Shown: positions 14,078 through 17,793 of the stretch, one piece after another | Numbering within the stretch: the stretch's first letter is position 1 | Layout: each line of letters begins with the position of its first letter | Assembly (NCBI GenBank): GCA_964363385.1 | Contig: CAYIIA010000001.1 | Location: forward strand, 1 to 25,019 | Direction of reading: 5' to 3' | Length of the DNA: 25,019 nucleotides | Source of the DNA: an uncultured Gammaproteobacteria bacterium | GTDB lineage: Bacteria; Patescibacteriota; Patescibacteriia; 2-01-FULL-39-33 | Notes under the pieces: generated by a model | What the model saw: the letters and a program-made list of their open reading frames with translations, nothing else | Database searches by the model: none | Told to the model about the DNA's origin: nothing | Program-made: the position numbers and the translations under genes

Positions 14078-15820
14078 TTATTCTCTATTCTTAATCTCTT
14101 CCAAAATCTCTTTGACAAACTCTCCCGCTTTCTTAGCTCCCAAGTCTCCAACGCCTCTCTTCCTCACCGAAACCGTATCCTCGGATTTTTCCTTCTCTCC
14201 CACCACTAGGATGTACGGCGTCTTTTCCTTTTCCGCGTTCCTAATCCTCTTGCCCAAGGATTCATTGCTGTCATCGAGCTCCACCCGGATATTATTCTTT
14301 TCAAAAATTTCCTTAACCTTTATTCCGTAGTCATTGAACTTTTCCGAAACCGGGATGATCTTTACCTGGTTGGGAGAAAGCCAGGTCGGGAAAGCGCCGG
14401 CGTAGCGTTCAATTAGGAGCGCCATGGTCCTTTCGTAAGCGCCGATGGAAGAGCGGTGGATGACAATGGGCCTGACTTCCTGGCCCTTCTCGTCAATGTA
14501 CGCCATATCGAATTTTTCCGGCAGAGCGAAGTCTATCTGCACTGTAATAATAGTATCTTCCTTGCCGAAAACATTCTTCATCTGGATATCCAGCTTCGGC
14601 CCGTAGAAAGCCGCTTCTCCCTCAGCCTCCTCGTATTTCATCTTGTTCTTGTCCAGGATTTTTTTCAGAGTCTTTTCCGACTGCTCCCAAGCTTTGGGAT
14701 TGTCTATGTATTTCCCCTTGTTGTTCTTGGGATCCCATTTGGAAAAGCGGTACCAGAAGTCGGAGAGCCCCAGAGTTTTCAAGATGTACTGTATCAGATC
14801 CAGGACGCCCTCGAATTCTTCTTCCAATTGATCCATCCGGCAGATGAGGTGGCCTTCGGAAAGGGTGAATTGCCGAAGCCGGATGAGGCCGTGCATCTCG
14901 CCGGAAGATTCATTCCGGAAAAGCGTGGAAGTTTCGTTGTAACGGATAGGCAGATCCCGATAGCTTCTTTTCTCGGCTTTGTAGATCTGGAATTGGAATG
15001 GGCAGGTCATGGGCCTTAGCGCCATTTCTTCGCCTGACGCGTCCAGGACGAACATGCCGTCCCGGTAGTGGTCCCAGTGCCCGGAAACTTTGTACAGATC
15101 GCTCTTGGCCAGATACGGCGTCATAGTCAGCTGGTAGCCTCTTTTCTTTTCTTCGTCCTCTATCCATCTCTGCAAAATCTGTTTAATAATGCTCCCCTTG
15201 GGAGTGAGTAAAGGCAGTCCCTGGCCGATGAGATCTGAGGTGATGAACAGCCCCAATTCCTTTCCTAATTTGTTGTGGTCCCTTTTTTCCGCTTCTTGGA
15301 GCATTTTTAAGTATTCCGCCAATTCTTCTTTGGTTCCGAAAGCCGTGCCATAGATCCTTTGGAGCATGGCGTTTTTTTCACTGCCTTTCCAGTAAGCCCC
15401 GGCCACTCTAAGCAGTTTGAAATTTCCCAATTCTTTAGTGGAAGAAACATGAGGTCCTCGGCAGAGATCTTCAAAATCCCCGACTTGGTAAAAGGAAACT
15501 TTTTTCTCGCCTTGGTTTTTTAAATCCTCGACCAATTCCAATTTGTACGGCTGGTCTTTTAGTTTATTTTCAGCTTCTTCAATTTTGACCTCCTTTTTAT
15601 TGAATTCCAGATTCTTTTTAATAATCTCTTTCATCTTCTGTTCAATCTTATCTAAATCTTCCAAGGAAAAAGTCTCGCCGTTTAAGTCAAAGTCATAATA
15701 AAATCCGTCGTCAATAGTCGGCCCGATGCCGAATTTGACGTCCTTAAAGAGCTCTTTGACGGCGTATGCCAGGATATGGCTCGTCGAGTGCCGGATAATG
15801 TCCAGTTTTTCTTTTTCCAT
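14078..15820 (-). CDS. thrS: Threonine--tRNA ligase (580 aa, lacking the N-terminal TGS domain)
   Basis: IRHSTSHILA, DLCRGPH, RPMTCP, GLIRLRQF, EAAFYGPKLD, IHRSSIGAYER. Start at ATG 15820, downstream of the T-box terminator. Confidence 0.97.
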   Translation of the reverse strand: MEKEKLDIIRHSTSHILAYAVKELFKDVKFGIGPTIDDGFYYDFDLNGETFSLEDLDKIEQKMKEIIKKNLEFNKKEVKIEEAENKLKDQPYKLELVEDLKNQGEKKVSFYQVGDFEDLCRGPHVSSTKELGNFKLLRVAGAYWKGSEKNAMLQRIYGTAFGTKEELAEYLKMLQEAEKRDHNKLGKELGLFITSDLIGQGLPLLTPKGSIIKQILQRWIEDEEKKRGYQLTMTPYLAKSDLYKVSGHWDHYRDGMFVLDASGEEMALRPMTCPFQFQIYKAEKRSYRDLPIRYNETSTLFRNESSGEMHGLIRLRQFTLSEGHLICRMDQLEEEFEGVLDLIQYILKTLGLSDFWYRFSKWDPKNNKGKYIDNPKAWEQSEKTLKKILDKNKMKYEEAEGEAAFYGPKLDIQMKNVFGKEDTIITVQIDFALPEKFDMAYIDEKGQEVRPIVIHRSSIGAYERTMALLIERYAGAFPTWLSPNQVKIIPVSEKFNDYGIKVKEIFEKNNIRVELDDSNESLGKRIRNAEKEKTPYILVVGEKEKSEDTVSVRKRGVGDLGAKKAGEFVKEILEEIKNRE

Positions 15821-15836
15821 ATATTTTGGGTTATTT

Positions 15837-16008
15837 AAAAAACCTCTCATCTCAAAACACATCTTTCGGATATATTTTGGGACGAGAGGATTTCCCGCGG
15901 TTCCACCCACATTCTTTGCCTGACGGGCAAAGCGCTTTTTGTCTGAACTTAGCCTGGTTTGAAGGGCCTCATTTAGAGGCAGGCGGTTGGTAGCCGTCTC
16001 AATCGTTT
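15837..16008 (-). promoter_or_regulatory. T-box riboswitch leader of thrS (transcriptional terminator type)
   Basis: The minus strand has AATGTGGGTGGAACCGCG...CTCGTCCC (T-box antiterminator), preceded by the stem III-like CTTTGCC/GGCAAAG and followed by a long terminator (15889-15843, GAAA loop) plus U6. Confidence 0.88.
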
Positions 16009-16014
16009 GACTTT

Positions 16015-16043
16015 ATTATATCCCTATCTAAAAAGGCCGTCAA
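16015..16043 (-). promoter_or_regulatory. thrS promoter TTGACG-17-TATAAT
   Basis: Read on the minus strand. The divergent argS promoter is TTGCCA(16051)-17-TAAAAT(16074). Confidence 0.75.
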
Positions 16044-16086
16044 ATTTTCATTGCCAAAATCCGTTTTTTCCGTTAAAATTACAGAT

Positions 16087-17793
16087 ATGGAATCAAGCAG
16101 CTATAAAATCAAGAAACAGATTTTGGATTTAGTCGCGCAAGCCGCTGGACCCAAGATAGATGTCAACCAGCTGGAAGTGGTTGTCCCTCCCTCGACAGAT
16201 ATGGGTGATTTAGCCGTGCCTTGTTTTTACCTTTCAAAACTGCTTCGCCGTTCGCCCAACCAGATTGCGGACGACCTGGCCAAGAAGATGTCTCCGGGAG
16301 GGATTATTAAATCCATCCAGAATGTCGGACCCTACCTTAACTTCTTCCTGACTCCGGAGATCTTGGCTAAGGAAGTGTTGAAGGAAATTAAAGACGCCAA
16401 GGAAGGATACGGTTGCATTAAAAAGAATAAGGAAAAGGTTATGATAGAGTACTCCCAGCCCAACACGCACAAGGAGGTCCACATCGGCCACTTGAGGAAC
16501 GCGGTCTTAGGCGCTTCGTTGGTCAATCTTTTCCGTTGCCAGGGATTCAAGGTAACCGCCGCGAACTATATCGGAGATATCGGATCGCACGTTGCCAAGT
16601 GCTTGTGGGCTCTGGACAAGTTCCATAAAAAAGAAAAACTGCCGGAAAACAAAGGTAAGTTCCTGGGACAGGTGTACACAGAAGCCGTGCAGAAAATCGA
16701 GGCCAACCCGGAATTCAAGAACCAGGCGGATGAGGTTTTGAGGAAATTGGAACAAGGAGACAAGAAGTGGATTTCTTTGTGGCAGAAAACCAGGAAATGG
16801 AGTTTGGATGAGTTCGACAAGATTTACAAGACCTTAAACATTAGATTCGATCACTTCTTCTTCGAGAGCGAAGTGGAAAAGCCGGGCAAGAAAATCGTGG
16901 CGGATCTTCTTAAAAAAGGTTTGGCTAAGAAGTCTGAAGGCGCCACGGTCATTGATCTGGAAAAACATAATCTTAAAACCTTTTTGCTTTTAAAATCAGA
17001 CGGCGCTTCCTTGTATTCCACCAAAGACCTGGCCTTAGCCCAGCTTAAATTCAAGAAGTTCAAAATAGACCGGAGCATTGTCTTAACCGACACCCGCCAG
17101 AATTTTTACTTCAGCCAACTTTTCAAGACTTTGGAGATAATGGGATTCAAACAGCCCATGTCGCATGTGCCGTATGAGTTTGTCACCCTGAGGGAAGGCG
17201 CCATGGCTTCCCGGACCGGTAACGTGGTCTTGTTTGAAGATTTTTTCCAGGAAGTGCTTTCCCGAGCAAGGATGGAAACGAAACAAAGGCACAAGGAATG
17301 GAGCGAGAAGAAGATAAATCTCACAGCAGAGAAAATTGCTCTCTCGGCCATTAAGTTCGGCATGCTTAAAGTGGGCAACAACAGTGTCATCGTCTTTGAT
17401 CTCGAAGAAGCTCTGAGCTTCGACGGTTTTTCCGGACCATACTTGCTTTACACCCTGAGCCGGATCAGCAGCGTTTTTAAGAAAAACAAATCTCAAAATG
17501 CCGGCCATATAGATTACCGCAAACTGGATACGGAAATTGAAAAAGAAATCCTTTTGAAACTCGCAGAATTTCCGGAAATATTAGTTAAGGCCAGAAAAGG
17601 GTTCGAACCGAGCGAAATAGCTAAATACCTTTTTGAACTCTCCCGCCTTTTCGCCAATTTCTACCAGACTGTTCCCATCCTTTCTTCTGCCAAGGAAAGC
17701 CGTCAAGCCAGATTAGCGCTCCTCCAGGCTATCCAAAAGGTATTAACCGATGGCTTGGCTGTTCTAGGCATTGAAACCCTGAAGGAAATGTAA
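16087..17793 (+). CDS. argS: Arginine--tRNA ligase (568 aa)
   Basis: GPYLNF, IEYSQPNTHKEVHIGHLRN, YIGDIG, LKSDGASLYSTKD, MASRTG, GPYLLY, RLFANFY. Start placed at ATG 16087. Confidence 0.97.
   Translation: MESSSYKIKKQILDLVAQAAGPKIDVNQLEVVVPPSTDMGDLAVPCFYLSKLLRRSPNQIADDLAKKMSPGGIIKSIQNVGPYLNFFLTPEILAKEVLKEIKDAKEGYGCIKKNKEKVMIEYSQPNTHKEVHIGHLRNAVLGASLVNLFRCQGFKVTAANYIGDIGSHVAKCLWALDKFHKKEKLPENKGKFLGQVYTEAVQKIEANPEFKNQADEVLRKLEQGDKKWISLWQKTRKWSLDEFDKIYKTLNIRFDHFFFESEVEKPGKKIVADLLKKGLAKKSEGATVIDLEKHNLKTFLLLKSDGASLYSTKDLALAQLKFKKFKIDRSIVLTDTRQNFYFSQLFKTLEIMGFKQPMSHVPYEFVTLREGAMASRTGNVVLFEDFFQEVLSRARMETKQRHKEWSEKKINLTAEKIALSAIKFGMLKVGNNSVIVFDLEEALSFDGFSGPYLLYTLSRISSVFKKNKSQNAGHIDYRKLDTEIEKEILLKLAEFPEILVKARKGFEPSEIAKYLFELSRLFANFYQTVPILSSAKESRQARLALLQAIQKVLTDGLAVLGIETLKEM

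Follow-up and report, generated by a model that had tools for sequence, protein, structure and literature searches.

A putative minimal T-box with a very short Stem I and an intrinsic terminator upstream of thrS in a Patescibacteriia genome

Can a T-box leader with a very short Stem I control transcription rather than translation? The thrS gene is a classical T-box target. Four classes of T-box are distinguished: a long Stem I and a mostly transcriptional output characterize classes I and II, and classes III and IV, whose Stem I is short or intermediate, require a Stem II with an S-turn and act mostly on translation (PMC10482949). In the published view, transcriptional T-boxes generally depend on the elbow-binding part of a long Stem I for the fast capture of tRNA (PMC7583486), TBDB says the same of the long Stem I (PMC7778990), and the ‘ultrashort’ T-boxes are stated all to regulate ileS (bioRxiv 2023.02.28.530422). 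The leader studied here lies in a window of 25,019 nt, i.e. the whole stretch of DNA that was analysed (contig CAYIIA010000001.1 of assembly GCA_964363385.1, class Patescibacteriia in GTDB), from a genome of 0.69 Mb in 85 contigs that is 88% complete. The initial annotation had proposed that a very short Stem I with an apical ACC is combined with a terminator in front of thrS in this CPR-like genome, a combination that we find both in the window and in about 50 related leaders. We consider it likely, with a probability of roughly 80%, that the leader functions as an attenuator of thrS, namely a tRNA-Thr-sensing T-box whose decoding domain is minimal.

The thrS leader and its predicted folds

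The product of thrS scores 675 bits against TIGR00418 (cut-off 384) and carries the Pfam tRNA_SAD, class II core and anticodon-binding domains. The sequencing runs listed as containing the leader stretch are DNA runs from groundwater metagenomes, with no RNA run among them. All of the elements listed by the initial annotation were located on the minus strand at the places it gave (Table 1). The thrS promoter matches the consensus at 11 of 12 positions and predicts a start at A16008 or A16007, so that there is indeed little room before the T-box motif, as had been claimed. Stem I, described at first as 3 bp (CGG/CCG), is actually longer, with one A·C mismatch in the window (15997/15983). The P0 helix encloses Stem I together with hairpins II and IIA, which gives a four-way junction made up of bases 1–62. 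At the other end of the leader, the 5′ strand of the terminator is the 3′ strand of the antiterminator (15889–15879 are shared) and the two structures are mutually exclusive. Between the end of the terminator and the ATG of thrS lie 17 nt, and the terminator covers no ribosome-binding site.

Table 1. Features of the thrS locus in the window and of the related glycine leaders
Feature	Position	Strand	Description
thrS (threonine-tRNA ligase)	14078..15820	minus	580 aa, ATG at 15820
thrS leader	16007-15837	minus	171 nt, base 1 = 16007
Sigma-70-type promoter	16015..16043	minus	TTGACG (16043-16038), 17-nt spacer, TATAAT (16020-16015)
Closing helix P0, 5′ strand AAC	16005..16007	minus	bases 1-3, pairs with GUU 15948-15946
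Junction strand GAUUG	16000..16004	minus	bases 4-8, conserved
Stem I	15981..15999	minus	6 bp: 15999-15994 with 15986-15981 (bases 9-14/22-27)
Stem I loop CUACCAA	15993-15987	minus	7 nt, apical
Thr specifier ACC	15991-15989	minus	bases 17-19, then conserved purine A15988 (A20)
Hairpin II	15966..15980	minus	GCCUC-UAAAU-GAGGC, directly after Stem I
Hairpin IIA	15953..15965	minus	CCU-UCAAACC-AGG, 3 bp, weak here; directly before CUAA
CUAA and GUU	15946..15952	minus	CUAA 15952-15949; GUU 15948-15946 is the 3′ strand of P0
Single-stranded A-rich linker	15933..15945	minus	CAGACAAAAAGCG, 13 nt, 3′ end is the RRRxG purine string AAGCG
Stem III	15914..15932	minus	CUUUGCC-CGUCA-GGCAAAG, then AA; aligns well to the Rfam T-box model
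T-box motif	from 15908	minus	GGGUGGAACCGCG, about 100 nt after the predicted start
Antiterminator	15879..15908	minus	A1 GGG/CCC, 7-nt bulge UGGAACC, A2 GCGGG/CUCGU
UGGA of the antiterminator bulge	15905-15902	minus	complementary to the tRNA 3′ end UCCA
Intrinsic terminator	15889-15843	minus	CCUCUCGUC...GAUGAGAGG, inner AU-rich helix, then U6 (15842-15837)
Gly leader	L168:296-403	plus	short hairpin, GGC in the apical loop
Gly leader	L170:1065-1236	minus	short hairpin, GGC in the apical loop
Gly leader	L173:285-403	plus	short hairpin, GGC in the apical loop

The whole leader folds better than 200 of 200 shuffled sequences (z = −4.3), mainly owing to the terminator, the hairpin of which has a folding energy of −25.7 kcal/mol. 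For the 3′ part, the terminator fold is at −43.2 kcal/mol compared with −16.1 kcal/mol for the antiterminator fold, and the default state should therefore be off. The 5′ domain by itself is not significant on folding energy (z = −0.3): the junction of the window as proposed is at −10.0 kcal/mol, compared with −12.6 kcal/mol for the minimum free-energy fold, and the closing helix P0 costs 1.7 kcal/mol in the nearest-neighbour calculation. We consider this domain to be real because of its conservation and covariation in the relatives. A scan with the Rfam T-box model (RF00230), as suggested by the initial annotation, matches the 3′ half of the leader with 40.7 bits (E = 9 × 10−8), which is below the gathering score of 93, and the well-aligned portion is limited to Stem III and the antiterminator. 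This is the sole T-box-like Rfam match in the source genome, and none of 20 related leaders reaches the gathering score.

Conservation and covariation in related leaders

Homologous leaders were first spotted by a DNA search of 40 related genomes, and a covariance model with a hand-set structure was then built from the leaders of seven relatives. It gives one match in each of 22 of the 34 genomes of the GTDB family and matches in 62 of the 151 sampled genomes of the class, with many families represented. The Rfam T-box model exceeds its threshold in only six of the same 151 genomes, and T-box regulation in CPR bacteria is therefore under-annotated. Outside the class, a sample of about 145 genomes from the phylum gave nine matches, and by eye most of the thrS leaders among them appear to have a longer Stem I with GAAUACCA in an internal position. 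The best match that carries a name is in a metagenome-assembled genome labelled Candidatus Falkowbacteria (74 bits). The gene downstream on the same strand is thrS in 47 of 50 loci, the remaining three loci ending too early.

The model was used to align 52 matches, 48 of which are well-formed members and served for position counts. In this alignment, which was fitted to the model and is thereby biased toward its structure, 96.9% of the cells fall in standard pairs, compared with 72.5% in column shuffles (none of 500 reaches the observed value) and at most 52.3% when the partner strand is slid. Both sides change in 16 of the 17 pairs, including all six of Stem I (96.3% of cells paired) and all three of P0 (94.9%, with changes between AU, GC, CG, UA and others). 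The P0 variants include AAC/GUU, AGC/GCU, AGU/ACU, GGU/ACC and GAU/AUC, as well as CCU/AGG, AAA/UUU, UGU/GCA and AGA/UCU; the conserved CUAA (46/48) fixes the position of the 3′ strand of P0, and the slide control is clean. Helix A2 of the antiterminator also covaries (97% paired). The GUU of P0 had previously been assigned to a possible pseudoknot with an AAC in the loop of hairpin IIA. This pairing is possible in three of the 52 leaders, the window included, compared with 44 of 52 in which P0 is fully paired with the 5′-terminal strand, and the pseudoknot was rejected.

As for individual positions, the alignment of the relatives’ thrS leaders, which the initial annotation had also suggested, shows that the specifier ACC is invariant, as is the A that follows it (48/48). 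A second ACC in the window (15958–15956) had been put forward as an alternative specifier; any ACC in that region is found in only ten of the 48 members and this candidate was discarded. In the Stem I loop, position 1 is a C in 75% of members, position 2 is always U or C and position 7 is an A in 92%, from which we infer an anticodon-loop composition (C-U-NNN-A-A). The junction strand is nearly constant (A5 47/48, U6 46/48, U7 47/48, G8 48/48), YUAA/CAA is kept in 46/48, and UGGA in the T-box bulge is found in all 48 members. So is the RRRxG purine string before Stem III, which precedes this stem in T-boxes (PMC7583486). At the place of hairpin II the relatives have a hairpin of unrelated sequence and at that of hairpin IIA one of 3–8 bp. 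Unconstrained folding gives exactly two top-level hairpins between Stem I and CUAA in 36 of 49 leaders, abutting in 31, with a mean z of −2.1 for this region; both hairpins are predictions from folding.

A strict test for the terminator, with overlap of the antiterminator 3′ strand and a U-run, is passed by 38 of 50 loci, and most of the others have shorter CCC...GGG-U-run versions. In 37 of 50 loci, the 70 nt upstream contain a promoter matching at least 10 of 12 positions, compared with one of 48 in a control inside thrS. Of the 42 promoters with a score of 9 or more, 41 have a −10 box that ends 6–18 nt ahead of base 1, and a long Stem I upstream is therefore excluded.

Some loci depart from the simple order of leader and gene. 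In about ten relatives another gene lies between the T-box and thrS (L032, L034, L042, L048, L052, L064, L076 and L080). It encodes a GNAT acetyltransferase in six loci (assigned by Pfam in L034 and L064 and by N-terminal similarity in the other four) and an SAM synthetase in L076, while L080 has a D-Tyr-tRNA deacylase and a 23S-IVS protein. In some members of the family (L051, G013:C7; L052, G047:C4), large insertions in the region of the linker and Stem III split the model matches, the leader of G013 being 263 nt long.

The tRNA partner, the proposed mechanism and its alternatives

The invariant UGGA predicts U73 in tRNA-Thr, as had already been predicted from the window. In the family, U73 is present in 24 of 24 genes for tRNA-Thr(GGU) and in 50 of 50 other tRNA-Thr genes read (CGU/UGU/GGU set), and all 74 end in ...GGC-U. 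In the source genome, tRNA-Thr(CGU), which is counted among these 50, has U73 and no encoded CCA; the gene for tRNA-Thr(GGU) is present, and the end of contig C57 cuts it off after base 60, before N73. In some relatives tRNA-Thr(GGU) appears as two half-matches about 190–230 nt apart (G024:C1:278817-279081 and G019:C5:1875-2148; L157 and L163), with half-matches also in G013, G041 and G047, which suggests an intervening sequence near the anticodon region of these genes.

Three weaker matches of the covariance model, likewise from this class, precede glycine-tRNA ligase genes (glyS; NF003211). Each combines a T-box bulge (UGGA or UGGG) with a terminator, and the one of L170 has a clean K-turn beneath the short hairpin (ACAGC-AAUGA ... 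UGA-GCUGU). These leaders look like a glycine counterpart of the minimal design, and GGC before glyS compared with ACC before thrS would amount to a natural codon swap.

These observations can be assembled into a mechanism. Transcription would start at about 16008, and the first 62 nt would fold into the four-way junction, in which the 3-bp helix P0 closes over Stem I and hairpins II and IIA. The 7-nt loop of Stem I, which resembles an anticodon loop, would display ACC for pairing with the GGU anticodon of tRNA-Thr. If the tRNA is uncharged, its U73-C-C-A end would pair with UGGA, the antiterminator would be stabilized and the polymerase would read through into thrS; if the tRNA is charged or absent, the more stable terminator would form and transcription would stop at the U6 run. 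Both the binding of tRNA and the response to its charging are thus deduced from sequence, and the junction would take the place of the elbow-binding and S-turn parts of other T-boxes.

Three other readings have to be weighed against a minimal tRNA-sensing attenuator. The least probable of them is a canonical T-box with a long Stem I, transcribed from further upstream and with a K-turn at about 16055. Rfam does align GGCAAUGAA (16055–16047) to the K-turn consensus and pairs G16054/C16053 with 15984/15983, but these are the only 2 bp proposed, the 3′ side has no GA, and this stretch is occupied by the 11/12 promoter and extends into the promoter and start codon (16087) of the divergent argS. Moreover, the relatives conserve only the promoter upstream of base 1, at 6–18 nt, and the 6-bp hairpin that bears ACC covaries independently. 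The Rfam placement of the K-turn, which overlaps the promoter and is not conserved, was rejected; a start further upstream with a canonical Stem I, named by the initial annotation as what would speak against its short Stem I, finds no counterpart in the relatives. A translational output of the actinobacterial ileS type, with the 3′ hairpin hiding a ribosome-binding site, is very unlikely, although the apical-loop-specifier T-boxes described so far are all translational ileS leaders (PMC10482949; bioRxiv 2023.02.28.530422). Here, U6 directly follows the 3′ hairpin, the end lies short of the ATG, and neither a Shine–Dalgarno-like run nor a start codon is found within the hairpin. In the relatives, a hairpin with a U-run is kept in at least 38 of 50 loci at variable distances from thrS, sometimes with an intervening gene.

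It might also be proposed that the 3′ half alone senses any uncharged tRNA with U73 and that the 5′ junction serves folding, stability or protein binding, the last including a ThrRS operator like that of E. coli thrS. We identified no contact that would strengthen the 3-bp codon–anticodon pairing, and the conserved junction strands GAUUG and CUAA have no assigned role, both of which are in line with such a division. Against it, ACC and the purine after it are invariant although the sequence of the stem varies freely, and the codon fits the regulated gene in 47 of 50 loci, with GGC in its place before glyS; we regard this reading as slightly less probable even than a translational output. The E. 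coli thrS operator mimics the anticodon arm of tRNA-Thr. An operator of this kind was rejected for the leader because the Stem I loop shows the codon rather than the anticodon.

Relation to known T-box classes and other features of the genome

How does the leader compare with the T-boxes described so far? It shares most of its 5′ features with class III (ileS of Nocardia farcinica, Mycobacterium tuberculosis and M. smegmatis): a short Stem I without the elbow-binding double T-loop, an apical specifier placed almost equally far from the 5′ end, with a conserved A after it (A20 here, A19 there), and a next helix that follows Stem I without a linker, with Stem III and the UGGN bulge also in common. 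Binding at 24 nM is reported for class III. However, the loop has 7 nt compared with 5–6 nt in class III (PMC10482949), and the codon and gene are those of threonine, whereas class III has been described for ileS only. Its output device is an intrinsic terminator instead of a Shine–Dalgarno sequestrator, and we found neither an S-turn-bearing Stem II nor an F-box or IIA/B pseudoknot. The 5′-end helix encloses Stem I and two hairpins, whereas in class III a K-turn closes Stem I alone. The 5′ strand NNN-GAU-UG-R resembles the NNN-bulge-GA of a K-turn, and a K-turn-like fold is possible; the 3′ strand reads AA at the position of the K-turn GA, and no tandem G·A pair is conserved in the aligned relatives. 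Hairpins II and IIA have variable loops on short stems that are mostly perfect; we found no S-turn Stem II or IIA/B pseudoknot there, and they may hide a noncanonical equivalent. The initial annotation had described a hybrid of the actinobacterial ileS type with a terminator: the short Stem I with its apical specifier and the terminator stand, whereas the ileS type is too simple a description because the S-turn Stem II and the IIA/B pseudoknot were not found.

The 3′ side is closer to the transcriptional classes. Like glyQS of class II (Bacillus subtilis, Geobacillus; PMC10482949, PMC7583486), the leader would be transcriptional with the terminator as the default, has no Stem II domain and links its decoding domain to Stem III and the antiterminator by a single strand. 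It has none of the long Stem I, K-turn, internal specifier loop and glycine specificity of glyQS, nor the distal double T-loop with which glyQS contacts the tRNA elbow by stacking. With class I (RF00230, for example B. subtilis tyrS and thrS) it shares the same logic, with ACC having C in third place and UGGA facing U73, as well as the RRRxG–Stem III–AA motif and the choice between antiterminator and terminator. It lacks the long Stem I, AG bulge, distal loop, Stem II and pseudoknot of that class. For a Stem I of class I or II the promoter leaves 8 nt before the 6-bp hairpin, with nothing conserved upstream.

In our assessment the leader is a genuine T-box and belongs to an architectural variant that is large and apparently undescribed. 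We found no description of T-boxes in CPR lineages (Patescibacteria, Parcubacteria, Saccharibacteria) in the literature searched, and an earlier mention is possible. A bolder proposal, to which we give somewhat less than an even chance, is that it represents a fifth architectural class that works at transcriptional speed. Its decoding domain would be the four-way junction, with the tRNA held by just two base-paired contacts, namely the loop–loop pairing of the anticodon-loop mimic with the anticodon and that of UGGA with the tRNA 3′ end, and with no elbow platform or S-turn clamp; it would be the main T-box of this entire class of CPR bacteria, with a glycine counterpart before glyS. The family appears to break two rules, that terminators go with a long Stem I and that a short Stem I goes with an S-turn Stem II and translation. 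A natural family of this kind would offer a direct test of the minimum RNA needed to read the identity and charge of a tRNA during transcription, and its sensing part of about 130 nt would make a compact part for engineering.

Several features of the genome should also be mentioned. The ThrRS of the source genome has no N-terminal TGS domain. It is 57–62% identical to ThrRS from Clostridia, compared with 41–55% for most relatives of its own class, and a gene transfer behind this resemblance is possible. Divergent from thrS, argS starts at 16087 on the plus strand, and the two promoters stand back to back. With 8 nt between the end of the promoter-like site of argS (TTGCCA-17-TAAAAT, within 16051–16089, plus strand) and the ATG, the argS message may lack a leader entirely or almost entirely. 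At 595–691 of the window (minus strand), the Rfam DUF3800-V RNA gives a full-length match of 62.8 bits (gathering score 37.4). Finally, tRNA-Gly(CCC) and tRNA-Thr(CGU) adjoin without a spacer in contig C47 (2688–2834), neither of them encoding CCA, and this pair is also adjacent in most relatives.
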